NCBI GenBank assembly: GCA_039812885.1
Contig: JBDIBI010000015.1
Location: 126,878-161,149 of the forward strand
DNA: 34,272 nt
Direction: 5' to 3'
Source of the DNA: Blastocatellia bacterium
GTDB taxonomy: Bacteria > Acidobacteriota > Blastocatellia > Chloracidobacteriales > JADJPF01
Shown: positions 2,022-21,309 of the stretch, piece after piece
How positions within the stretch are numbered: the stretch's first letter is position 1
Layout of the letters: every line of letters begins with the position of its first letter
Notes under the pieces: model-generated
What the model was told of the DNA's origin: nothing
Database searches by the model: none
Seen by the model: only the letters and a program-made list of their open reading frames with translations
Position numbers and translations under genes: made by a program

Positions 2022-3239
2022 ATGACCGAACAAAGCGAACAATTAGCAGCTGGCACAGTTCTAGTTAATCGATACACGATTGTTAAACGGCTTGGTGGAG
2101 GAGGTATGGGAAATGTTTATCTAGCAACAGATAAACATTTGGCAGAAGCACACCGAGCTGTTAAAGAAATGATTGGCCGATTTTCTGATGAAGCATCCAA
2201 AAAAAAGGCGATAGAAGATTTTAAGCGAGAAGCTAATGTTTTGTCTTCTTTGGAACACCCTTCTATTCCTACTGTTTTTGACTATTTTGCTAGTGATGAT
2301 GGCCGTTATTACTTGGTAATGAAATATATTCAAGGTCGTGATTTAGAGGAAGAACTAAATGCAGCAAAGGCTGCTGGTCAGAATTTTCTACCAGAAGCTA
2401 CTGTAGTAAATTGGGCAATTCAATTATGTGAAGTATTTGACTACATTCACAGCCTAGATCCTCCTATTATTTATCGTGACATGAAACCTGCAAATGTTAT
2501 GGTTGACTCTAAGCTTAAACGAGCTATGTTAGTCGACTTTGGTATTGCTAGAGTTGTTGCCCCGACTCAGAAAAATGTTACTGCAATAGGAACAATGGGT
2601 TATGCTCCTCCAGAACTCTTTGCTGGTAAAGTTGAAGCACGTTCTGATATCTACTCTTTAGGTGCAACTATGTTTCACCTTTTAACAGGAGAAGATCCTC
2701 AAGCTAATCCTCTACTACTTTTTGATTTCAGTCGTTTCCCAAGACCAATTCAAATCAATCCTTCGTTAACCAAGACAATTGACGAAATTATTGCTAAGTG
2801 TGTTGCTCATAAGCCTACAGATAGATTTAAATCTGCTGCAGAAATGAAACAAACACTAGAAAAACATCGGTTTGCATTAGAATCAGGAGAAGCTACCAAA
2901 CCTAAAAACCCTGTGGGAGTTTTAAAAATAGTTCTTAGCGGTTCTGGACACCAAGCTACTTTTGAAATAAGCAAAGAAACTAACTTAATTGGTCGTCATG
3001 ATCCTGCTCGAGGCATTACACCAGAAATTGACTTAGGTCAATTTGATAGCTCTGGTAGAGTTTCTCGCCGACATGCAACAATTCATATCCAAGGTGGTAA
3101 TTTCTTTATAGAAGACTTAGGAAGTGCTAATGGTAGTACATTAAATCAAGTACCCTTACCATCACAAGAACGCAAGCCTCTAAAACCTGGAGATCAAATC
3201 CATATAGGCGAAACAGTTCTAGAGTTTTCTATTAAGTAA
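2022..3239 (+). CDS. Ser/Thr protein kinase (Hanks-type) with C-terminal FHA domain
   Basis: Kinase motifs are the G-loop GGGGMGNVY, the lysine in AVKEM, the catalytic loop YRDMKPANVMV, DFG, and GTMGYAPPE. The C-terminal roughly 100 aa form an FHA domain (LIGRH...GRVSRRHATI...FFIEDLGSANGSTLN). Confidence 0.85.
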   Translation: MTEQSEQLAAGTVLVNRYTIVKRLGGGGMGNVYLATDKHLAEAHRAVKEMIGRFSDEASKKKAIEDFKREANVLSSLEHPSIPTVFDYFASDDGRYYLVMKYIQGRDLEEELNAAKAAGQNFLPEATVVNWAIQLCEVFDYIHSLDPPIIYRDMKPANVMVDSKLKRAMLVDFGIARVVAPTQKNVTAIGTMGYAPPELFAGKVEARSDIYSLGATMFHLLTGEDPQANPLLLFDFSRFPRPIQINPSLTKTIDEIIAKCVAHKPTDRFKSAAEMKQTLEKHRFALESGEATKPKNPVGVLKIVLSGSGHQATFEISKETNLIGRHDPARGITPEIDLGQFDSSGRVSRRHATIHIQGGNFFIEDLGSANGSTLNQVPLPSQERKPLKPGDQIHIGETVLEFSIK

Positions 3240-5103: not shown

Positions 5104-5668
5104 GCAATAATCTCCTCCTTATATTATTTATCCTATTAAGATAAGTAAAAACTTACCTTAAGCTAACAATTGATAGCTAAGTTATAAACAAAGTTATTCT
5201 TAAAAATTAGATTAAAAAAGAATAAAACACTATCTAAGCTTTAACTAGAAAACATTGCAAATTTTTACCAATGTGCTTATTTGACTTCCTTTGACTCTTT
5301 ATTTTTAGCTTCTTGCTTCCAAAATATCATTTCTAAAAGGCTTATACCTGTTTTTATCTCTTGACAAATTTTTACTCATTCTATTATCTTAAATAAAAAT
5401 GAAAAGCATTTTCATTTTCTATAAAAATAAAAACAAAAAAAGCGTCCTGATTGAATACAAGACGCTAGTTCAGTCATAAAAACAAAACTCCAAGAAATAA
5501 GCTTAATGGGCATCAAGCATCACTTGGAGTAGATTACCTTCTTTTGAAAGGATCCACTGTATGTGTAACACACTTATTTTTCTCAAGCAAGGGAAAAACC
5601 TTGTTAGGGAAATTTCTTCTCGCTTTAGACCTTCCCAACAAATAAAAGCACTTTCTAGTAAATTGGGT

Positions 5669-7597
5669 ATGTCTCTAGTATTACTTTGTTTATTATCAAG
5701 TAGTTATAGTTTGTCTTTAGCTCTAGCACTAGCTAATATTTCTGGACATTTGGCAGATCAAAATGGTTTACCAATTAGAGGAGCTAATATAATTTTGCAA
5801 TCTCAATTAATTGCAAATGAACAAAATGTTGTTAGTAATGGCGAAGGAATGTTTTTCTTTAAAAATTTACCTGAAGGTAAATATAAACTGATTATTACTG
5901 CACAAGATTATCTTCCTATAATTAAAACTATCTCTTTGCCATTATCAGACTCAAAAGAACTAGACTTAACTCTTTCTACAATTAATAAAAATTCTTCTAA
6001 CACAACTACTTCAACATCAGAAGTAGAACAACTTCGTCAACAATTAATTCAAACTACTCAACAACTTAACCAAACCAACCAACAAGTTGAAAAACTTGCA
6101 GCGTTAGTTCAACAATTGCAAGCTAAAATAGATAAAGCTGAAAGTAAGCCTGAAGAAACTATTGGTTTATCTGCCAATGTTTCATCTGTATCTGTTGCAT
6201 CTACTAAACCTGTAGTAAATGAACCTGCTAAGAAAACAGGTATTCTTGCAGGACTTATACATAGCAACAACCCCCAAAATGATGGGCAATCTCAAGATCC
6301 AAATTCTATTGATAAATTAATTAAACCTAAAGCCGAAGGTGGACAGTTTTCTGGCTCTCAAGGTTTGCTTAAAACAGATAGAGTAAAAGTAGGTGGTTAT
6401 CTTGGATTTCGCTATCAAACTCGTGGGTTAGATGATGGTGTTGAAATACAAGAAAATGTTGATGAAGCAAATGCAGGAATGACTGCGGATACTAATTTTA
6501 AGCGTTCTGGCTTTGTTAACAGTCGTTTAGTATTAGGAATTGCTGCGACTTTAGCTCCAAAACTATTATTTAACAGTGAAATTGAATATGAATTTGCTGG
6601 CAAAGAAGTAGATATAGAACAAGCTTATGTTGAATACCAATTTCACCCTACATTTAACTTTAGAGGTGGTGTAATTGTTCCTCCACTAGGCCGATTTAAC
6701 TTGTTCCACGATGATAACTTACAAGACATTGCTACCCGTCCTCTAGTAAGCACTTTTGTTATTCCATCCACCTACAAAGATGCTGGAGTAGGTTTCTTAG
6801 GGAGTGTTAACATAGGTAAACGTTCTAAATTAAGCTATGAGGGTTATGTAGTAAATGGTTTGCGCAGCGATGAAGGAGGAGAATTTGCTCGTGAAGCAGG
6901 GTTATTTGAGTCAAAAGACAACAATAGATTTTTTGATAACAACCCTCAAAAGTCTGTAGTTGGACGCTTAGTATTTAGCCCTATAATAGGATTAGAATTA
7001 GGTGCATCTGGCTACAGGGGCAAACATGATAATCAAGGAAGATATGATTTATCTATTTTTTCCTATGATTGGAAATTTACTCGTGGAGACTTTCAAGTTA
7101 TTGGAGAATATGCTCGTGCTGCTATAGGTAGAGCACCTGAGACAGATCAAGAATTAGCAGCAAAAGCTTTTCTTCAATCTCTACCTAAGGGAAATTACAC
7201 AAACACCTTTGAATTTTTAGATGAAAACATTAATGAGCCTATTTTTGATAAATCTGCTCGTTCTACTGATGGTTTATACGTTGAGGCACGTTATCGTTTT
7301 CGTCCTCGTTGGTTTACTTCTCGCACAAGTGAAGAAGGGTCAATAGCTCCTGTATTTCGTTTTGATCAAGTTAATTTTGACCGTTCTTACAAAAACTTTA
7401 GTTTCCCATTAAATCAACGCCGCTACAGTATGGGACTATCAATTCGTCCTGTTGAAGCAACTACATTTAATTTCACCTATAACTTTAACCGTAAGCCAGA
7501 TTTATTTTTACGTTTGCCTGATGGTAGACCATTTGGTCCTTATTTTACAAACTTAGGTGTCAATAGCTTTAGTTTTGGAATGGCTGTAGCATTTTAA
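5669..7597 (+). CDS. Outer-membrane beta-barrel protein (porin-like) with an N-terminal CarbopepD_reg-like domain and coiled coil
   Basis: The signal peptide is MSLVLLCLLSSSYSLSLALALA. It is followed by a carboxypeptidase-regulatory-like beta-sandwich (GHLADQNGLPIRGANIIL...EGKYKLIITAQDY), a Q-rich coiled coil, then about 400 aa of alternating amphipathic strands ending ...FSFGMAVAF, which is the OMP terminal-Phe signature. The alternative upstream ATG at 5561 (AAGGA 7 nt upstream) would add a 36-aa basic N-extension. Confidence 0.6.
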   Translation: MSLVLLCLLSSSYSLSLALALANISGHLADQNGLPIRGANIILQSQLIANEQNVVSNGEGMFFFKNLPEGKYKLIITAQDYLPIIKTISLPLSDSKELDLTLSTINKNSSNTTTSTSEVEQLRQQLIQTTQQLNQTNQQVEKLAALVQQLQAKIDKAESKPEETIGLSANVSSVSVASTKPVVNEPAKKTGILAGLIHSNNPQNDGQSQDPNSIDKLIKPKAEGGQFSGSQGLLKTDRVKVGGYLGFRYQTRGLDDGVEIQENVDEANAGMTADTNFKRSGFVNSRLVLGIAATLAPKLLFNSEIEYEFAGKEVDIEQAYVEYQFHPTFNFRGGVIVPPLGRFNLFHDDNLQDIATRPLVSTFVIPSTYKDAGVGFLGSVNIGKRSKLSYEGYVVNGLRSDEGGEFAREAGLFESKDNNRFFDNNPQKSVVGRLVFSPIIGLELGASGYRGKHDNQGRYDLSIFSYDWKFTRGDFQVIGEYARAAIGRAPETDQELAAKAFLQSLPKGNYTNTFEFLDENINEPIFDKSARSTDGLYVEARYRFRPRWFTSRTSEEGSIAPVFRFDQVNFDRSYKNFSFPLNQRRYSMGLSIRPVEATTFNFTYNFNRKPDLFLRLPDGRPFGPYFTNLGVNSFSFGMAVAF

Positions 7598-7710
7598 CTT
7601 AGTTGGATTTGCTAGTAATCTAGCTAAGTCTTTCTATTTTCTATAAAACCAAATTTCAGATCTCTTTTTAGAGGTCTGAAATTTATTATGTAAAAGTGTT
7701 AAGGAAAATT

Positions 7711-8934
7711 ATGCATTCTTTCAAGAAATTTATACTAGCGACGTTTATAGCTTTTTCTTTTTTATTAACAACTTATGAGCCAACAATAGTAGCTCAACAA
7801 AGCTTTACAGAAGCAATTACAGGTTTTGATAATGAGCCAAATGGCTTAGTCGATAGTGCAAAACATAAAGAAAATCTAGATGTTTTTGCACAAGTAGAAG
7901 GTATAAAAGATGGTATAGGCCCTGTATTTAATTCATTTTCTTGTGGTGAATGTCATTCAAATCCAATTATTGGAGGCAGTAGCCAAATTACAGAACTACG
8001 TGCTGGACATTTTGATGGAAAAAATTTTATTGATCACCCTGGTGGCTCACTAATTCAAAGCCGTGCAATTGATCCATCTATTCAAGAAAAAGTCTTAGAA
8101 GGCAATGAAGTAAGGACATTTAGACTTTCTTTAAGCATTTTAGGAGATGGTTACGTAGAAGCTATTGATGATAATACACTACTTAATATTGCTAAAGAAC
8201 AAGTTAAACTCTCTGGAGGAAAAATTGCGGGTCAGGCGATTTGGGTACCTGTTGAAGAAGCTCCTGGAGTAATGCGTATTGGTCGTTTTGGTTGGAAATG
8301 CCAACAAGCTAGTTTGCTTTCTTTCTCTGGAGATGCTTATGTAAATGAAATGGGAATTACAACTCCACTTTTCCCTCTAGAAAATACATCTAATGGAAAA
8401 TCTATTAGTAAATTTGACAGTTTAGCAGATCCAGATGAAGGTGATAATGATGACTTGGAAACATTTACTGAATTTATGAGAGCCACTAAAGCACCTTCTA
8501 GAGACGCAAAACTAGCTCAAAATCCTAATGCCCAAACTGGAGAAAAACTATTTACTGACATAGGCTGTGCTATTTGCCATGTCAGTAGTTTAACAACGCT
8601 ACCAACAGGTTTTAAGATTAACGGTGGTACATTTACTATACCTGAAGCTTTAGGTAATAAAATAATTCATCCTTATGGGGATTTTCTTTTACATGATATA
8701 GGAACTGGAGATGGAATAGTGCAAAACGGTGGTCAAGAGACTAGAAATAAAGTTCGCACTGTTCCTCTTTGGGGTTTACGCACTCGTAACCGTTTAATGC
8801 ATGATGGTCTTTCTTTAACAGTTAACGAAGCAATCTTGCGGCATGCAGGTGAGTCTAGTTTTGTTATAGATAAATATCGTGCTTTAAGCAAAAAACAACA
8901 ACAGCAAATTTTAACTTTTTTAAGTTCACTATAA
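7711..8934 (+). CDS. Secreted di-haem cytochrome c peroxidase-family protein (CCP/MauG/DUF1111-like)
   Basis: There is a signal peptide and two CxxCH haem motifs (CGECH and CAICH). The C-terminal LRTRNRLMHDGLSLTVNEAILRHAG matches the CCP-family LRN...HDG...EAV.H motif, and GRFGWK is also present. The start is set to the ATG at 7711 (AAGGA 5-6 nt upstream); the track's 7696 is a GTG. Confidence 0.7.
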   Translation: MHSFKKFILATFIAFSFLLTTYEPTIVAQQSFTEAITGFDNEPNGLVDSAKHKENLDVFAQVEGIKDGIGPVFNSFSCGECHSNPIIGGSSQITELRAGHFDGKNFIDHPGGSLIQSRAIDPSIQEKVLEGNEVRTFRLSLSILGDGYVEAIDDNTLLNIAKEQVKLSGGKIAGQAIWVPVEEAPGVMRIGRFGWKCQQASLLSFSGDAYVNEMGITTPLFPLENTSNGKSISKFDSLADPDEGDNDDLETFTEFMRATKAPSRDAKLAQNPNAQTGEKLFTDIGCAICHVSSLTTLPTGFKINGGTFTIPEALGNKIIHPYGDFLLHDIGTGDGIVQNGGQETRNKVRTVPLWGLRTRNRLMHDGLSLTVNEAILRHAGESSFVIDKYRALSKKQQQQILTFLSSL

Positions 8935-8938
8935 TTTT

Positions 8939-9505
8939 ATGGAAAGACGCATTTTTATCAACAAACTAATAAAAACTGTGGGTTTAGCAGCAACAACTGT
9001 TATAGCTAACCCTTTGCCAATTTGGGCACAAGAACGTGTTTTTTTAACAACAGAAAAAGCCTTAAAACTAGTTTTTCCTAAATCTGAAAAAGTGCTTACA
9101 GAATCAAAAGTCTTAAGCGATGAGCAAATTAAAAAAATATCTAATTTGCTTAGAATACCTATCCCAAAACAGCAAATCTTTTTCAGAGGAGAAACAGCAG
9201 GTGCTACAGATGGTTATGCAATGATTATAAATGAAATTGGTAAAGATCAGTACATAACCTTTATTGTTGGGATAACTCCTCAATTTAAAGTTTCCAAAGT
9301 TTCATTAATGGTATTTAGAGAAACTCGTGGTTGGGAAGTTCAAGATGCTCGTTTTTCCAATCAGTTTAATGGCAAAACGAGCAAAGACCGTTTACTTGTA
9401 GGTTCAGATATTGTTGGCATCACTGGTGCGACGCTCTCAGCACAAGCTTTCTGCCGAGGGACAAAAAAAGCGATTGCTCTATGTGAAATAGTTTATGGAG
9501 CATGA
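8939..9505 (+). CDS. FMN-binding domain protein (NqrC/RnfG-like) with a Tat-type signal peptide; predicted ApbE flavinylation substrate
   Basis: The N-terminus MERRIFINKLIKTVGLAATTVIANPLPIWAQE has an RRxF[IL]xK twin-arginine motif plus an h-region and AxA-like site. A C-terminal TGATLS motif corresponds to the [S/T]GAT[S/T] FMN attachment site. The gene lies 5 nt after the stop of the upstream gene. Confidence 0.65.
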   Translation: MERRIFINKLIKTVGLAATTVIANPLPIWAQERVFLTTEKALKLVFPKSEKVLTESKVLSDEQIKKISNLLRIPIPKQQIFFRGETAGATDGYAMIINEIGKDQYITFIVGITPQFKVSKVSLMVFRETRGWEVQDARFSNQFNGKTSKDRLLVGSDIVGITGATLSAQAFCRGTKKAIALCEIVYGA

Positions 9506-10448
9506 AGTTTGTCAAGTCCAGTATATAATGGGGACTACCGTAGAAATAATTATTTATGTTGATTCTTGTTCTGACTCACAACCAATCTTAAGCGCTGCTT
9601 TTGCCGAGTTTGAGCGTCTAGAACAAAAATTTAGCTACTTCAATCCAGAAAGTGAGCTTTCCCTAGTAAACACACAAGCAGCTAAAAAGGCTGTTTGTGT
9701 GTCTCCAGAATTCTTCCATATAGTCGAAAAAGCCTTAAACTACTCTCTAGCTTCAAAAAATAGCTTCTCAATAATGCTTGCTCCTTTAACACAACTTTGG
9801 CAAAAAGCTTTTTTAGAAAATAAAATGCCTAAGAAAAAAGATATTGCTGAATTGCAACAACTTAATAACTCTAACTTAATAGAATTAGATAGTGATAACT
9901 ATACTATTTTTTTCCACCACCCTAAACTAAGCTTAGATTTAGGAGGATTTATAAAGGGTTATGCAGCAGATTGCGCAAAAGCAACTCTTTATCAACACGG
10001 AATACTTAATGGACTAATTAATGCTGGTACTAGTACTATTACTGCCTGGGGGACTTCTTTATATAGAGAAAGTTGGCCTTTTGGAATTAAACATTTACAA
10101 GAAAATAGTGTGGTAGCTGTAGTTAACCTAACAAATCAAGCAATATCTACTTCAGGGACTAATGAGAAAAACTTCCAACTTCAAAATAAATTTTTTTCCC
10201 ATTTAATAAACCCTTCTACAGGCTACCCTGTTGATCTTTTAACTAGTGCTACAGTTATTTGTAAATCAGCACTAGAAGCAGAAGTTATTTCCAAAATGCC
10301 TCTAATGTTAGGACTAGAAGAAACTGTAATTTCTTGTGAAAACAATGGGTTACTCCTAGATGGTGTACTTTTACAAGAATTAGACGAAGAAAAAAATATC
10401 CATTTATCTTATTATCAGTTATCAGACTCAATAAGTATAATATCTTAA
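9495..10448 (+). CDS. apbE: FAD:protein FMN transferase (ApbE family)
   Basis: ApbE motifs are MGTTVEI near the N-terminus, DLGGFIKGYAAD and INAGTSTI. There is no signal peptide. It overlaps the upstream FMN-binding gene by 11 nt (ATGGAGCATGA). The alternative start at M12 is 9528. Confidence 0.75.
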   Translation: MEHEVCQVQYIMGTTVEIIIYVDSCSDSQPILSAAFAEFERLEQKFSYFNPESELSLVNTQAAKKAVCVSPEFFHIVEKALNYSLASKNSFSIMLAPLTQLWQKAFLENKMPKKKDIAELQQLNNSNLIELDSDNYTIFFHHPKLSLDLGGFIKGYAADCAKATLYQHGILNGLINAGTSTITAWGTSLYRESWPFGIKHLQENSVVAVVNLTNQAISTSGTNEKNFQLQNKFFSHLINPSTGYPVDLLTSATVICKSALEAEVISKMPLMLGLEETVISCENNGLLLDGVLLQELDEEKNIHLSYYQLSDSISIIS

Positions 10449-10469
10449 CTAGTATCTGGAAGGTAAATT

Positions 10470-11042
10470 ATGACTCCATTTCCTCTTTCTCGAAGTGATT
10501 GGAATACAAAAATTTTAATAACTATTTTTCTTTTGGTGATGTTAGTCTCTTTTACTGTGGCAGAGCTAAATGTTTATGATAAGGTTGGACGTATTAAAAA
10601 CGGAGTAGTGCTTAGATATGGCCCAAGCCCAGAATTAACAATTGATCCTAATAACCCAAATCCAGAACCTAATATACTTTCAACAGAACCTAGTTTAACT
10701 CCTCCTGTAGAAGGTGAAATAGTAGCCCGTATGAATACCTTCAGTATTTTACTGGATATAACTCACCCACATGTTTTTGAGATTCCTTTAGTTTTATTTG
10801 TGCTAGCCCATTTTTTGATGAGAACTAGAGTTTCAGAACGGCTCAAACTTGTAACTTATTTAGTTAGTTTTGGTGGATGTGTAGCATTTCTAGGAACTCC
10901 TTGGCTTGTGCGGTATATATCAACTAAATTTGCAAACTTGCTTTATTTAGGAGCATTTAGTATGGGTATAACTGTAGTATTAATGGTAATAATTCCTATA
11001 TTTGATATGTGGCTACCAGTAAAAAAAGCTGCCAAGTCTTAG
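10470..11042 (+). CDS. Small integral membrane protein (4 predicted TM helices, HPH...AH motif), last gene of the flavin/haem cluster
   Basis: The 190-aa ORF has hydrophobic segments ILITIFLLVMLVSFTV, IPLVLFVLAHFLM, LVTYLVSFGGCVAFLG and LGAFSMGITVVLMVIIPIF. A Pro/Asn-rich loop follows TM1. GGAAGG RBS is present. I recognise no family. Confidence 0.5.
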   Translation: MTPFPLSRSDWNTKILITIFLLVMLVSFTVAELNVYDKVGRIKNGVVLRYGPSPELTIDPNNPNPEPNILSTEPSLTPPVEGEIVARMNTFSILLDITHPHVFEIPLVLFVLAHFLMRTRVSERLKLVTYLVSFGGCVAFLGTPWLVRYISTKFANLLYLGAFSMGITVVLMVIIPIFDMWLPVKKAAKS

Positions 11043-15221: not shown

Positions 15222-17690
15222 TTAGTTTTTAGCAACACGAAATCCTATGAAATCACTGGATTTTGCGCTTCCAAAACGAAAAGGAGCTACTATATCGTTA
15301 GCACTTGATTTAAAATTTCCTCCACGTACTGTATAACAACCATTACAATCTATTTTCGCTTTTGTTCCGGCATAAGGTCGATAACTATCGGCAGTCCATT
15401 CACTGACGTTTCCTGACAATCCAATAATACCAAAAGGGCTTTTATCACTAGCCAAAGTAGAGCTATTTATAGGAGCTGTAACCCCTAAACTAGTGTCAGA
15501 ATAAACTGTGTTACCTTTTTCCAAATCATTTCCCCAAGGATAAAGTCGATTTTCTGTTCCACTTGCAGCATATTCCCACTCTTCCTCTGTAGGAAGTCTA
15601 TAACTTTCTTTCTTTACTTTAGATAACCATTGACAATAATACTGGGCATCTTCCCAGGTAACATTAACTACAGGTAAGTCCTCTGCTCCATTTGGAAAAT
15701 CTGTCCCTACCCAACCTAAAGGAGACCTATAATTTGTCTTACGTACAAATTCCTGGTATTGTTTATTAGTAATTTCATAACGGCTTAAAAAGAAAGTTTT
15801 TACCATTACTTGATGAGATGGAGTTTGCTCTAAAGGAACATCTTTGCTTACATCACGCCCCATAACAAAAGAACCTCCAGGAATCTTAACCATTTCTGGA
15901 GTAACTATAATGTCAGCCGTTTTTTGTGTGTTGTTAAATAGCTGTAAAATAAATAAAACTAAGAAAAATAATAAGCCTCCAATAAGAGCTGAAAGAAAAA
16001 ATAAAACTAAATTAGATTCTAATAATTTACTCTTTTTCTTAGGAGAAGATACATTAGTATTAGGAGGAGTCTCAACTAAAGGCTGACGACTTGGCTCTGA
16101 ATATTCATTTACTGTATTATTTACTACATTATTTACTACATTATTTACTGATTTTGGATAGTTTAAGGGTTTGGTTTCTAACCCTGTTGGACCAGAAGGA
16201 GGTATAGGTCTGAGTGGAGATGGCTCTGGTTGGCTATACTTAGATTCATTTCCAGAAACACTAGGGATGTTTGGCGGATTTTGTGGTGAATAAGGCATAT
16301 TAGCCTTAGGAACACGTGAGCGAACATCTAATTCATCTGGAGAAGAATATTTTAAGGGTGTTTGATTATCAAAAGATTCGCTAGAAAAATTATTAGCATT
16401 ATTATTAGCAGGTCTTCTAGGTAAACTACTGACCATTTCTCTAAAATTAACAGCTTGTTCAAAATCTTTTGCTAGTTCCAATGCACTTTGTTGACGATTA
16501 GAAGGTTTCTTTTCAAGTGCCTTCATTACCACATCATCTATACTTACAGGAATTTCTGGACAAAGACTACGCATTGAATTTGGTTTACTTCCAATATGTT
16601 TCAGAGCCATTCCTACTGGAGTTGGATCATTAAAAGGCAAACTTCCAGTTAATGATTCATATAAAATAACTCCCAAAGCATAAATATCTGAACGGTGATC
16701 AATATCTGCACCTTCACAAAGTTCTGGTGAAACATAATTATGTGTACCTAATACTAAACCATGGGAAGTTAGTACACCTTCTGTCCCCAAAGATTTGAGT
16801 TTAGCCATTCCAAAATCTAGTACTTTTACTAATTCTTCTCCACCACTTTCATAGATCATTATATTTTCTGGTTTTAAGTCACGATGCACAATTTGATCAC
16901 GGTGTGCAGCTTCTAAAGCAGAACATATAGGGCGAACAATTTTTAGCATTTCTTTGGGAAGCAGCCTATGCTGATGTTGGAGCCTTTCACGGAAAGTTTC
17001 TCCATTTAAGTATTCCATAGCAAGATAGACTACTTCATCACGAGTAATACCAAAATCTAAAACGTTAATTGCATTAGGATGATGTATTTTTGCTGCAGCA
17101 TGTGCACCACGACGAAATCTTTCTACAGCAGATTGATCATTAACTAAGTAAGGATGCATTATCTTTATTGCCACTGGCACATCCATTTGAATGTGTGTAG
17201 CCTTATACATAACACCTAATTCACCTTCCTTAATTTTGCTGATTATCCTATATTTATCATTAATAATTTTCCCGATATAATCTTTAATTTGCTTTCCAGC
17301 AACAGGAATACCTATAGTTTGCCTAGCTAAAAATGCTTGAGGATCAAAATTAGCGTAGCTGTGATGAGGAGATTTACCTGCATTTTCCTCATCTAAAAGG
17401 CGCATGGCATCCATTAAAACTTCAGCCCAAGATTTAAAAATAGTTCGCTCTGAAGTAGTTACAGAAGCATCTATGCGAAATGAACCTTGTTCATACTTTA
17501 AGGCTTCATATATAGCTTTTACCCCAGAATATTGTCCAAGACGTGCATCATATATTTCTCCATCTTGAAAATAAAAAACACCATCTCCAACAGGGAAACG
17601 TACTAGTAATCGTGCAACATTACGCCCTAAACAATTAATCTGAATAATGTCAGGTAAGGGTAGTTCTTTTATATCTCCAACTAATGCCAT
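15222..17690 (-). CDS. Multidomain Ser/Thr kinase: N-terminal DUF4388, Hanks kinase domain, Pro/Ser/Asn-rich linker, one TM helix and a C-terminal extracytoplasmic FGE-sulfatase (formylglycine-generating-enzyme-like) domain
   Basis: DUF4388 is MALVGDIKELPLPDIIQINCLGRNVARLLV. The kinase shows VAIKIM, HRDLKPENIMI, DFGMAKL and NYVSPE. The TM helix is LVLFFLSALIGGLLFFLVLFIL. The FGE block is IPGGSFVMGRD...RGGNF...GFRV. Confidence 0.85.
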   Translation of the reverse strand: MALVGDIKELPLPDIIQINCLGRNVARLLVRFPVGDGVFYFQDGEIYDARLGQYSGVKAIYEALKYEQGSFRIDASVTTSERTIFKSWAEVLMDAMRLLDEENAGKSPHHSYANFDPQAFLARQTIGIPVAGKQIKDYIGKIINDKYRIISKIKEGELGVMYKATHIQMDVPVAIKIMHPYLVNDQSAVERFRRGAHAAAKIHHPNAINVLDFGITRDEVVYLAMEYLNGETFRERLQHQHRLLPKEMLKIVRPICSALEAAHRDQIVHRDLKPENIMIYESGGEELVKVLDFGMAKLKSLGTEGVLTSHGLVLGTHNYVSPELCEGADIDHRSDIYALGVILYESLTGSLPFNDPTPVGMALKHIGSKPNSMRSLCPEIPVSIDDVVMKALEKKPSNRQQSALELAKDFEQAVNFREMVSSLPRRPANNNANNFSSESFDNQTPLKYSSPDELDVRSRVPKANMPYSPQNPPNIPSVSGNESKYSQPEPSPLRPIPPSGPTGLETKPLNYPKSVNNVVNNVVNNTVNEYSEPSRQPLVETPPNTNVSSPKKKSKLLESNLVLFFLSALIGGLLFFLVLFILQLFNNTQKTADIIVTPEMVKIPGGSFVMGRDVSKDVPLEQTPSHQVMVKTFFLSRYEITNKQYQEFVRKTNYRSPLGWVGTDFPNGAEDLPVVNVTWEDAQYYCQWLSKVKKESYRLPTEEEWEYAASGTENRLYPWGNDLEKGNTVYSDTSLGVTAPINSSTLASDKSPFGIIGLSGNVSEWTADSYRPYAGTKAKIDCNGCYTVRGGNFKSSANDIVAPFRFGSAKSSDFIGFRVAKN
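16106..16152. repeat. 15-bp in-frame tandem repeat (about 3 copies) inside the kinase linker
   Basis: The plus strand reads ...catttactgtattatttactacattatttactacattatttactg... It encodes VNNVVNNVVNNTVN on the minus strand. Confidence 0.6.
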
Positions 17691-17821: not shown

Positions 17822-17866
17822 AAATAACAGCAGAAAGAACTAGTGTAATATACTAGTTCTTTCTGC
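17822..17866 (-). terminator. Rho-independent terminator of the TPR-CHAT gene
   Basis: A perfect 15-bp inverted repeat GCAGAAAGAACTAGT/ACTAGTTCTTTCTGC with a 7-nt loop overlaps the stop codon. On the minus-strand transcript it is followed by UGUUAUUUUCUUUAUAAAUUU. Confidence 0.7.
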
Positions 17867-20800
17867 TACTTCCATTCTCCTTGTAGCTGAAAATTAGCCC
17901 AATAAAACGGATTTTTATATTTTTCATCTTGGCGCATTTCCAATTGAGCGGCTCTTAAAGCAGCTATAGGAGTTTGTCCTTCTTTAAGTGTCTTTTGATA
18001 GAATTTTTTCATTAGTTCTGTATTTGCAGTATCATTAACATTCCATAAACTAACCATTACTCTAGAAGCTCCAGCATATATAAATCCTCGGGTCATTCCT
18101 AATAAACCTTCAGCTTGAGCATTTTTACCTACATTAGCTTCACATGCACTTAAAGTAATCAAATCTACAGGAAGATTAAGGTTAAACACTTTATAAGCCT
18201 GTAAAAATCCATCTTGTATATTTCCTTGCTCATCTGTTAGCGAAAGCATAATGCCCGATAACTCTGGATTGCTGCTATTGACTAAACTATAAGTAGAAAA
18301 ATGAATAACTTGATACTGTGAAGCTTTACCTTCTAGTAAAAACTTTATGTTAGCATCTGCACCTAAAACTTGTTTAACTTTTCCTTCTCCTAAAAAAGTA
18401 CTTAGCTCTTTGGTTTCATCACTAGAAATAGATAATCTAGCTATTTCTGAATTTAAACCTACTACTCCAACTTGTTGGGCGGATTTTTTCATCAATAAAT
18501 TACTATTTGCTAAATCTTTTGACTCAGAAGTATTTTTATTGTTATGTTTTGTACTCTTAACTCTAGTATCATTGCTAGAAAAAATCGGATCACCAATTAG
18601 TAATACTTCTTTGCTAGCTTGCTTAGATGCCTTATTTTCTCGCCTTATGCTAGATATTGTAGCAATAGAAGGAAGTGAAATTATCTCATGATTTACTAAA
18701 AGAGGTTCATCACTGCCTTTATTAGGTTCTGGTAAAGCATTGAATGGAATATATTGTAGTGAACCATCTAATACTAATACTAGGCGTTTTTTTCCTAATA
18801 GATCAGCCACAGGTGATAACAATATTTTGCTTAACTGAGAAGCAATCTTAGGATATTCATTATCCGCCAGTTCTAAAGTCATAGGACGAGAACCAACACT
18901 TTTTCCTTTAGCTAATAAACTACGAGCTATCATTAATTCCCGCCAATAATTAGTTAATGACTCTATTTCACTACGCTTAGGCAAAGTAAAACTTTTTACT
19001 TCTGATTGAGAAATAAACCATAAATAACTATTATCAGTCCCAATAGAATAATTCAATATAACAGTATTTTCATCTAGTATTTGTTGTTGAATTGTTTTTA
19101 TATCAAAAGCTCTAGGATGAGAAAATTCTGCATAAGTAGGATTAGTTTGTTCAATTTGAGCTTGGCATTCTTTTAATTCTTTTGAGAGACTTTCTATTTC
19201 TTTTTCTGCCTCTTTAACTTCAATAATAGAACTTTCTACTATATTAAGTTTAACAAGCCGTGCTGTCTTATCACCAATTAATTGTTTTAGCTCTCTTTCT
19301 TGAGCAATAAACTTGTTAGTAGGTGAAAAAACTTCTTTACCTCTTAACAAATTTGTTAGGTTGTAGTCTCTAGCTTGTTCACTAACTTTTAAGGCTTCAA
19401 TGTTTTTCCCTGCTTTTGGATCTAGTTTATGTTGATGCATTAAAACATTTACATAAAGTTTATAATAATCTTCTACACTAGTACTATAACTGTAATGTAG
19501 TTCCTGATCTTTAGAATTACTTTGCAAATTTTCAATAAGCTGAATGGCTTTCTCTATATTTTCCTGTGAGTCTTTAAGCTCATTTCGTCTATACTTTAAC
19601 AAGGCTAATCTATAAAGCAGTTGAGCTTCTTTTATTTCATCTTGCAATTCTTTAGCTACAATAATTCCTTGTTTATAAGAAGCTATAGCTTTTTCTTCAT
19701 CATAATTAAATTCCAAAGCTCGTCCAAGGTGATAGAAAATTTTTGCTTCAAGTTCCCTATTACCTTTTCTTTGGTTTAATTTATAAGCTTCTGTAAAAAA
19801 TCCAGCAGCTTTGTCTCCATCCCCTAAATCAAGATGTGCTTGCCCTACATCTATAGCTGTAGCAACACTTCCTGTTATATCGTTATTTTGCTTTAATAAC
19901 GTGAATACATCACTATAAATATCAATAGCCTTTCTAGCTTCTCCACTATCTCTATAAACCGTAGCTAGATTGTTTAATATTTGTGCTTGGCGAAGTCTAT
20001 CTTGTTTTATCTCTGTTAACTCAAGAGCTGTTTCCAAAGAGTTTAGAGCTTTTGTCACTTCTCCAGATCTATGATAAATTTCACCTAAATTATTTAGGAT
20101 TTCTGCTACTTTTTCTTCCTTACGTAACTTAGTCCATATATCTAAAGCTTGTTCATAATAACTTATTGCATTATTAGAATTATCTAAATCATCATATATA
20201 TTTCCAATGCTAGTTAACGTACTGGCTTCTAAAAGTTTATTCCCTTGATCATGAGCAATTAACAAAGTTTTTTCGTAATAACTTAAAGCTAATTTTGTTT
20301 CAGCTAAAAAATAGTAATCTCCTGCAAGTTCCCCAGTAATTTTAGCAACTTCTTCTGGCTCGTTTAATTCTTGCCAAACATCTAAAGCTTGTTTGTCATA
20401 GTCTATAGATTTTTTCATTGCTCCTTGATTTTTATAGAAATTTGCTAAAAAAGTTAAAGTTTGAGCAACTACTTCTTTGTTATTTGTCTCTTTACCTAAG
20501 GCTAATGCCTGATTGTAATAGTTTAAGGCTTGTTCTTCATCACCTATTGAATAAGAAACTAACCCCAAATTTTTCAAGCTTCTTGCCTGGCGTGAATTTT
20601 CGTTAGCTGTTTTTCTATAATTCAACTCTTTAGTAAAATATTCTAGTGATTGTTGATAGTTTCCTGCTAAGTAGTAACTTTCTCCGAGTCTTCTAAAAAC
20701 ATCTGCTATTGCTGCCTCTTCACCTGCTTTTTGCCAATATTTTAAGGCTGAAAGATACCGATCTACAGAAGTTAAAAAACCTTCTTTTGTTCCTATTTTT

Positions 20801-21309
20801 TGTAGTAAGTTTGCTTGTTCAGTTAACTCTCTAGCAATGCATCTATTTTTATCCTTAAGCAAAGCTTGTCGCATCTCTTTTATTTCTAAGTGATAAAGTG
20901 CAGGGCTAGTAATCTCATCTAATGAAGTTAGTTCTATTTGATAGTTGCCAGTAATTTTTGCAACAATTTCTAAAGTTTCTCGCTGAGTTTGTCTATCTTC
21001 TGTTACTAAATGGAAAACAGTTTCTCCACTAGGAGCAGTAATATTTATATCTACAGCCAATTTATCTGTTTGTGCAGCAATTTTTAAATATTGGCCTGCT
21101 TTGAGAGCAATTTGATAGGAATGAGATTCTTGCCCTTTTATTTCCCTATTAATATGTTGGCCTACCTTTCCAAACTCCAAGTTTTCCGACTCTACTTTTG
21201 AATCTAAATTTGTTTGTGTTTGTCCATTAGTTGAAAAAGGTGTGCTTAGCAATAAAATGATTACTATAGAGTACGTAAAAACTCTTATAGCATAACTTAC
21301 ATATGCCAT
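17866..21309 (-). CDS. Secreted multi-domain protein: signal peptide, pre-peptidase C-terminal (PPC)-like domain, about 10 TPR repeats, coiled coil and a C-terminal CHAT (caspase-like) protease domain
   Basis: The 1147-aa ORF has an AGGAG RBS and the signal peptide MAYVSYAIRVFTYSIVIILLLSTPFS. The PPC-like beta-sandwich covers about aa 40-140. Repeated TPR signatures such as YYEQALDIW and ALKYWQKAG follow. The CHAT block is HFSTYS...LITLSACEANVG...GFIYAGASRVMVSLWNVND, with a His/Cys dyad context. Confidence 0.8.
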   Translation of the reverse strand: MAYVSYAIRVFTYSIVIILLLSTPFSTNGQTQTNLDSKVESENLEFGKVGQHINREIKGQESHSYQIALKAGQYLKIAAQTDKLAVDINITAPSGETVFHLVTEDRQTQRETLEIVAKITGNYQIELTSLDEITSPALYHLEIKEMRQALLKDKNRCIARELTEQANLLQKIGTKEGFLTSVDRYLSALKYWQKAGEEAAIADVFRRLGESYYLAGNYQQSLEYFTKELNYRKTANENSRQARSLKNLGLVSYSIGDEEQALNYYNQALALGKETNNKEVVAQTLTFLANFYKNQGAMKKSIDYDKQALDVWQELNEPEEVAKITGELAGDYYFLAETKLALSYYEKTLLIAHDQGNKLLEASTLTSIGNIYDDLDNSNNAISYYEQALDIWTKLRKEEKVAEILNNLGEIYHRSGEVTKALNSLETALELTEIKQDRLRQAQILNNLATVYRDSGEARKAIDIYSDVFTLLKQNNDITGSVATAIDVGQAHLDLGDGDKAAGFFTEAYKLNQRKGNRELEAKIFYHLGRALEFNYDEEKAIASYKQGIIVAKELQDEIKEAQLLYRLALLKYRRNELKDSQENIEKAIQLIENLQSNSKDQELHYSYSTSVEDYYKLYVNVLMHQHKLDPKAGKNIEALKVSEQARDYNLTNLLRGKEVFSPTNKFIAQERELKQLIGDKTARLVKLNIVESSIIEVKEAEKEIESLSKELKECQAQIEQTNPTYAEFSHPRAFDIKTIQQQILDENTVILNYSIGTDNSYLWFISQSEVKSFTLPKRSEIESLTNYWRELMIARSLLAKGKSVGSRPMTLELADNEYPKIASQLSKILLSPVADLLGKKRLVLVLDGSLQYIPFNALPEPNKGSDEPLLVNHEIISLPSIATISSIRRENKASKQASKEVLLIGDPIFSSNDTRVKSTKHNNKNTSESKDLANSNLLMKKSAQQVGVVGLNSEIARLSISSDETKELSTFLGEGKVKQVLGADANIKFLLEGKASQYQVIHFSTYSLVNSSNPELSGIMLSLTDEQGNIQDGFLQAYKVFNLNLPVDLITLSACEANVGKNAQAEGLLGMTRGFIYAGASRVMVSLWNVNDTANTELMKKFYQKTLKEGQTPIAALRAAQLEMRQDEKYKNPFYWANFQLQGEWK

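Follow-up and report, generated by a model that had tools for sequence, protein, structure and literature searches.

Cytoplasmic flavinylation ahead of twin-arginine export is suggested for an FMN_bind protein encoded beside a signal-less ApbE in a Blastocatellia genome

A pair of overlapping genes was examined in a 34,272-nucleotide stretch of a Blastocatellia bacterium genome (assembly GCA_039812885.1, contig JBDIBI010000015.1, positions 126,878 to 161,149), referred to below as the window, in which all coordinates are counted from the first letter. The upstream gene (8939-9505, + strand) encodes an RnfG/NqrC-like FMN_bind protein of 188 amino acids (aa), a putative flavinylation substrate that opens with a predicted twin-arginine translocation (Tat) signal peptide. 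The downstream gene (9495-10448, + strand) encodes an ApbE-family transferase of 317 aa, predicted to be cytoplasmic, which moves flavin mononucleotide (FMN) from flavin adenine dinucleotide (FAD) to protein and here lacks any signal peptide. We propose, with a probability of roughly 65%, that the flavin is attached in the cytoplasm and that the loaded holo-protein is then exported by Tat. The first-pass annotation of these genes had suggested this order of events, and the suggestion gains support from the covariation of the two features across about 40 loci, from the weakly hydrophobic core of the signal and from a precedent in Klebsiella pneumoniae. Comparisons between genomes drew on 88 sequences, comprising the window and 87 fetched loci (L001-L087), some of which are duplicates of one another.

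The FMN_bind protein begins with MERRIFINKLIKTVGLAATTVIANPLPIWAQE, which includes MERRIFI, and matches PF04205 at 1.4e-7. A profile search of the PDB matched it to the RnfG chains 7zc6_G and 9eri_G, and the best 19 Foldseek matches of its AlphaFold2 (AF2) model to the PDB were all RnfG or NqrC. The overall predicted local distance difference test score (pLDDT) of the model was 88, with values above 90 for residues 33-188 and of about 50 for residues 1-30, which are unstructured. NCBIfam returned only weak RnfG and ApbE matches and nothing further, the RnfG models scoring 28-33 bits against cutoffs of 102-230, and a profile search of the window open reading frames (ORFs) found no rnf genes in the 34 kb. 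Given these low scores and the lack of rnf neighbours, the protein is judged not to be RnfG proper. Its predicted flavinylation motif, T162-G163-A164-T165 (9422-9433, + strand), corresponds to the [S/T]-G-A-[S/T] definition of PMC12052999, and G163, A164 and T165 were invariant in 54 homologues. T165 is the predicted site of the FMN phosphoester, where the C-terminal helix begins (residues 165-187 in the AF2 model). Two cysteines lie 10 residues apart on the same helix, C172 (9452-9454) and C182 (9482-9484); both are invariant in the clade with twin-arginine (RR-type) signals and absent from relatives with Sec-type signals. They could provide an additional cofactor or redox site, which might account for the use of Tat by this clade.

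The predicted Tat signal covers residues 1-30 of the FMN_bind protein (8939-9028, + strand), with the RR codons at 8945-8950. The twin-arginine motif RRxFI described in the first-pass annotation was readily located as RRIFI (residues 3-7), lying in the n-region and fitting RR-x-[FGAVML]-[LITMVF], the regular expression of TatP. No other possible ORF start in the window combined RRx[F..][LIV..] with a downstream hydrophobic stretch. R3, R4 and F6 were invariant within an otherwise variable signal in an alignment of 20 orthologues with 50-88% identity, and RRxF[IVL] was present near the N-terminus in 54 of the 63 closest homologues, all Acidobacteriota and mostly Blastocatellia. The other nine were N-terminally truncated calls or fragments, or seemingly complete calls starting just past the position of the motif (P0045 and P0060). 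The hydrophobic core (h-region) had a median hydrophobicity of 1.79 in RR-type signals compared with 2.75 in Sec-type relatives (Mann-Whitney p ~1e-8, kinship ignored), as would be expected for Tat signals. Cleavage likely occurs after IWA and before QE, a boundary at which [AG]-Q is conserved in nearly all close homologues and Q31 is invariant in the 20-sequence alignment. Overall, the FMN_bind signal appears to behave like a constrained Tat signal.

The transferase matched PF02424 at 2.3e-62, with profile positions 1-252 of 266 aligned to residues 12-278 and position 1 corresponding to the MGT motif; its PDB matches were FmnB (7esa, at 1e-30), TM1553 (1vrm) and Vibrio cholerae ApbE (6nxi). 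The in-frame codons leading into its start read TAT GTG AAA TAG TTT ATG, placing a TAG (9489-9491, + strand) one codon 5' of the ATG, so that no N-terminal extension is possible and an alternative start further 5' is ruled out. An in-frame stop had previously been placed 9 nt before this ATG; the distance is in fact 3 nt, and the conclusion drawn from it, that the ORF has no upstream extension, is unaffected. The N-terminus, MEHEVCQVQYIMGT, contains neither an RR nor an h-region. MGT begins at residue 12, in agreement with the earlier observation that the protein opens at this conserved region, and the 11 residues ahead of it are hydrophilic (maximum Kyte-Doolittle 10-residue mean of -0.31). 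No lipobox was found at the N-terminus and no transmembrane-like segment across the whole protein (maximum 19-residue mean of 1.16). Start calls for this gene disagree, with 317 aa from the 9495 ATG in Logan and 306 aa from M12 in JGI (P0093). Orthologues retain a stretch of about 11 residues ahead of the motif (M-x-x-x-[IV]-x-Q-A-x-Y-[LV]-MGT), and this conservation favours the 9495 start. Re-examination of the start sites, which the first-pass annotation had named as a way in which its reading might fail, revealed no signal peptide or lipobox from either of them.

The stop of the FMN_bind gene and the start of the apbE gene overlap by 11 nt (9495-9505, + strand), exactly as first described, and the two genes are likely to be translationally coupled. 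The junction differs among relatives: L001 has the same 11 nt, L003 overlaps by 4 nt, and in L011 the ORFs are separate. A programmed frameshift yielding a single RR-bearing FMN_bind-ApbE fusion was considered and rejected because the junction is not conserved among loci; no slippery site was recognisable by eye.

The presence of an RR signal on the FMN_bind protein and the absence of a signal from the adjacent ApbE covaried among genomes. For this comparison the N-termini at all loci were re-derived from the DNA, ignoring annotated starts. An alignment combining Tat-type with Sec-type FMN_bind proteins diverged too far to serve the locus scan; the scan used the Tat-type alignment and recovered loci of both types. 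At all 12 distinct RR-type genome loci (the window and 11 others), 9-20 non-hydrophobic residues precede the ApbE MGT, with a hydrophobicity score of at most 1.63; the same bound applies to L016, where a contig end cuts the N-terminus of the FMN_bind protein. The 20 Sec-type loci, from Terriglobia, Binatia, Myxococcota, Planctomycetota and others, all have an ApbE frame with a signal peptide or lipobox (score of at least 2.17), often 5' of the annotated start. A metagenome scan added about nine RR-type pairs with no exceptions, and two Sec-type pairs in which the ApbE bears a signal. Across the approximately 40 loci, an RR signal on the FMN_bind protein was accompanied by a signal-less adjacent ApbE (about 18-20 distinct Acidobacteriota loci), and a Sec-type signal by an ApbE with a signal peptide or lipobox (about 22 loci), without exception. 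Twin arginines also occur on the enzyme side in a few sequences. In L020, a Terriglobia metagenome-assembled genome, the ApbE signal contains RRTWIPAG and is paired with a Sec-type FMN_bind protein; this ApbE may itself be exported by Tat in the manner of NosX. P0170 and P0176 likewise look like RR-signal ApbEs.

These observations suggest that maturation would have shifted into the cytoplasm in this clade. ApbE would be made directly after its substrate by way of the overlapping stop and start, would remain in the cytoplasm, and would use cytoplasmic FAD and Mg2+ to transfer FMN onto T165 of the newly folded FMN_bind protein. The RRxF signal would then be recognised, the folded holo-protein exported by the Tat translocase, and the signal probably cleaved after IWA. 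In the periplasm the flavoprotein would serve as a small electron carrier working with a di-haem cytochrome, a porin and a His-rich membrane protein encoded by the neighbouring genes described below. The sequences show the domain identities, the missing signal of ApbE, the conserved RR motif and the covariation of the two features; the compartment of flavinylation, the dependence on Tat, the removal of the signal and the function of the module are inferred. Flavinylation in the cytoplasm is feasible biochemically: co-expression of a signal-less ApbE with its substrate in the cytoplasm of E. coli gave covalently bound FMN (PMC12052999). That ApbE modifies the targets of its own compartment is established for K. 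pneumoniae, in which location sets the specificity of a natural cytoplasmic ApbE (Bertsova 2014, as cited in PMC12052999). TatC was present in six of six Acidobacteria/Solibacteres genomes surveyed (PMC3827258).

Several points weigh against cytoplasmic flavinylation followed by Tat export. The signal-less ApbEs form one monophyletic clade in a neighbour-joining tree, and the covariation therefore counts as a single retained event and not as replicated evidence. It reflects one evolutionary switch, subsequently kept although the ApbEs of the lineages concerned now share only about 35-55% identity, and not repeated convergence. No second independent lineage was found, the signal-less ApbEs inspected from other clades (P0165, P0171 and P0101) having no FMN_bind neighbour. 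Pfam searches of all window ORFs detected no tatA or tatC in the 34 kb, and none was detected in the fetched loci by phmmer using approximate E. coli TatA and TatC queries. In principle, a periplasmic ApbE with its gene elsewhere in the genome could also attach the flavin to a Tat-exported protein once it is outside. The catalytic residues of the enzyme, for which the reference triad is Ser-His-Asp (S241, H257 and D285 of V. cholerae ApbE), speak in both directions. In favour of the proposal, an alignment with FmnB, TM1553 and V. cholerae ApbE shows that the window ApbE retains the Ser (STSG) and the His (FFSHLINP). The conserved Asp is replaced by Glu, a conservative change, and the Thr of the D-x-x-S-T metal motif by Lys (EAEVISK), such that the canonical Mg2+ motif, D-A-L-S-T, reads E-V-I-S-K here (residues ~254-260, ~10254-10274). 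The conserved His is itself replaced in three orthologues, by N in L001, Y in L009 and D in L015. The E-V-I-S-K variant is found throughout the clade and also in a few signal-bearing relatives with Sec-type substrates (L007 and L023), and is therefore not tied to cellular location. In view of the altered metal motif and the loss of His in three orthologues, full catalytic competence of the window ApbE is assumed.

Four other explanations of the gene pair were weighed. The signal-less ApbE might bind the FMN_bind protein in the cytoplasm and cross the membrane with it on a single RR signal, as subunits of hydrogenases and DmsAB do; flavinylation could then take place on either side of the membrane, with ApbE bringing its own FAD. 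An RR signal on only one partner, adjacent overlapping genes and strict covariation are all in keeping with such co-transport, and NosX and NirX are cases of ApbE-family members crossing by Tat (PMC7660919). We nevertheless consider it unlikely, as complexes of ApbE with its substrates are transient where they have been measured: the V. cholerae ApbE does not bind NqrC stably, and the Michaelis constant (Km) for NqrC exceeds 100 uM (PMC5655446). ApbE furthermore has no known role once its substrate is modified, and modification in the cytoplasm needs fewer assumptions. It is more improbable that the adjacent ApbE serves some other cytoplasmic or membrane target while a different, signal-bearing ApbE, with its gene elsewhere, flavinylates the exported FMN_bind protein. 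Many genomes do encode several ApbE paralogues (Meheust 2021, PMC8238504), and the lack of FMN_bind neighbours among signal-less ApbEs of other lineages would fit a separate target. This account, however, leaves unexplained why loss of the ApbE signal tracks gain of the RR by its neighbour without exception; the FMN_bind and apbE genes overlap, and a neighbouring protein with four transmembrane helices (4-TM) contains no [ST]GA[ST] when its sequence is read directly.

The RR might instead be incidental, with the N-terminus acting as a Sec signal or as an uncleaved anchor of the kind found in RnfG and NqrC. The residue that directly follows the RR of the window protein is Ile, an unusual choice at this place for a classical Tat consensus, and an N-terminal helix does anchor the RnfG and NqrC relatives. 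Such a role is nonetheless improbable to a degree that leaves it little weight: the invariance of RR and F, the weak hydrophobicity of the h-region in comparison with Sec-type relatives and the conserved [AG]-Q at the boundary all argue against it, and the Sec route would deliver an unfolded substrate to the outside while stranding its cognate enzyme in the cytoplasm. We give least credence to the idea that the ApbE homologue has lost transferase activity, persisting as a cytoplasmic chaperone or FAD-binding factor, or that the pair is degenerating. The altered metal motif and the His replacements in the three orthologues named above are what one would cite for it. Against this, the window ApbE keeps its Ser and His, is not shortened and shares 35-73% identity with its counterparts in the clade, the Glu/Lys variant is shared with the signal-bearing relatives, and the TGAT acceptor is invariant in the substrate.

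Cytoplasmic flavinylation with subsequent Tat export combines elements of several known systems. The canonical ApbE, Ftp and FmnB enzymes that act on NqrC, RnfG or PplA share with the window pair the PF02424 domain, the substrate fold, the [ST]GA[ST] motif and gene adjacency. A canonical ApbE, however, is itself exported by Sec, as a lipoprotein or a secreted protein; it acts outside the cytoplasm, on a substrate that is Sec-exported or inserted in the membrane, and needs exported FAD, whereas in the window the enzyme is signal-less and the substrate carries an RR signal. Another relevant system is ApbE2 of K. pneumoniae, described under the heading of "localization-controlled specificity" (Bertsova 2014, as cited in PMC12052999), which is signal-less and flavinylates in the cytoplasm as proposed here. 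According to the same citation its target is a soluble fumarate reductase that stays in the cytoplasm, whereas the window target bears a predicted export signal and belongs to an envelope operon. ApbE-type flavinylation and Tat are also combined in NosX and NirX of the nos and nir clusters (PMC7660919), but there the RR is on the enzyme, which acts in the periplasm on NosR, and not on the substrate. Tat-exported molybdoenzymes, hydrogenases, Fe-S proteins and flavin proteins follow the same logic, receiving their cofactor in the cytoplasm and being exported folded. ApbE-type phosphoester flavinylation as a maturation step preceding Tat, and the pairing of a cytoplasmic ApbE with a Tat-signal substrate, were found nowhere in the searchable literature, beyond the reach of which lie many subscription-journal papers. 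Within that literature, the first-pass description of the topology as uncommon is a fair one.

Were the proposal correct, it would offer a natural alternative answer to how periplasmic ApbE substrates obtain their flavin. Bfe or ECF/RibU-type exporters have been invoked for the supply of FAD to the periplasm for ApbE (PMC5655446, PMC9973259), a supply that becomes unnecessary if the flavin is attached from cytoplasmic FAD. ApbE flavinylation would then join the cofactor insertions that precede Tat export, and surveys of extracytosolic flavinylation seeking only signal-bearing ApbEs would mislabel or miss such enzymes. The two proteins, of 188 and 317 aa, are small and might help to produce exported, covalently flavinylated proteins. 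A wider interpretation is possible, although we regard it as tentative and on the doubtful side. Under it, ApbE flavinylation would be a pre-Tat cytoplasmic step that frees periplasmic flavoproteins from FAD exporters and serves an undescribed module of porin, flavoprotein and His-rich 4-TM protein, with or without the di-haem cytochrome, possibly a flavin-based counterpart of porin-cytochrome conduits; C172 and C182, confined to Tat-type proteins, might bind a further cofactor acquired in the cytoplasm, and the switch to Tat would then be accounted for.

The genes flanking the pair are consistent with a role in the cell envelope. Upstream lies a porin-like outer-membrane protein with an N-terminal CarboxypepD_reg domain (5561-7597, + strand; PF13620 at 1.1e-11), the orthologues of which give weak Porin_O_P matches. 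As listed, its ORF opens 36 codons 5' of a typical Sec signal, MSLVLLCLLSSSYSLSLALALA, and the true start is probably M37, at about 5669. It is followed by a di-haem oxidoreductase (DHOR; 7696-8934, + strand; PF06537 at 6.8e-37) that bears a Sec-type signal and contains CXXCH twice (C83/C86 and C291/C294). By its sequence DHOR is a c-type cytochrome of the periplasm. Its membership in the module is optional, as it is found in part of the Tat-type and part of the Sec-type loci. Since the rest of the operon is extracytoplasmic, as indicated by the Sec signal of the porin and the c-type cytochrome, the FMN_bind protein is also expected to function outside the cytoplasm. A hairpin with a 13-bp stem and a T-rich tail lies between the porin and DHOR genes (7597-7629) and could act as an intra-operon attenuator, but the promoter and terminator scan gave background levels, including for the count of terminator-like sites in the region.

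Downstream of apbE, the 4-TM inner-membrane protein (10470-11042, + strand) belongs to a group whose orthologues match Aq_1264_TM (PF27139). Seven of its residues, H99, H101, H114, K38, Y50, W145 and R148, are invariant (37-42 homologues), and the HxH formed by H99 and H101 opens helix 3 of the AF2 model. This model, a four-helix bundle (pLDDT 84), gave no significant match in a fold search against the PDB, the best E-value being 1.2. The protein is a candidate membrane redox or metal partner that might bind haem or metal.

The conserved module comprises the porin and the FMN_bind protein, often with ApbE, often with the 4-TM Aq_1264_TM protein and sometimes with DHOR. Nearly all 88 sequences, which represent Acidobacteriota, Myxococcota, Binatia, Gammaproteobacteria and others, have the porin gene directly 5' of the FMN_bind gene, and certain copies of the module adjoin TonB/ExbBD, ferritin or ABC transporter genes. 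In the window, the five genes from 5561 to 11042 appear to form one putative envelope redox module. A comparable organisation of ApbE, carrier and membrane component, probably for extracytosolic electron transfer, was reported for gene clusters with NapH-, MsrQ-, PepSY- or DsbD-like proteins or a DUF3570 barrel (Meheust 2021, PMC8238504). That survey retained clusters with at least one component with a predicted signal and did not discuss Tat. The window differs from those clusters in having the 4-TM Aq_1264_TM protein, with its three invariant His, and the porin; PF07396, PF06537 and a porin-flavoprotein module were not found in those of the Meheust 2021 supplements that were examined.

The host is a soil-type Acidobacteriota genome. 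The GC content of the window is 34.9%, which seems low for Acidobacteriota. secE-nusG-rplKAJ and rpoBC are also encoded in the window, which is therefore part of the core chromosome rather than of a mobile element. Identical proteins were present in JGI and Logan assemblies (SRR273087xx) and in one NCBI record. Signalling proteins with unusual domain combinations are encoded elsewhere in the window, namely a fusion of DUF4388, a Ser/Thr kinase and an FGE-sulfatase domain (15222-17690, - strand), a kinase-FHA protein (2022-3239, + strand) and a TPR-CHAT protein of 1147 aa (17866-21309, - strand).

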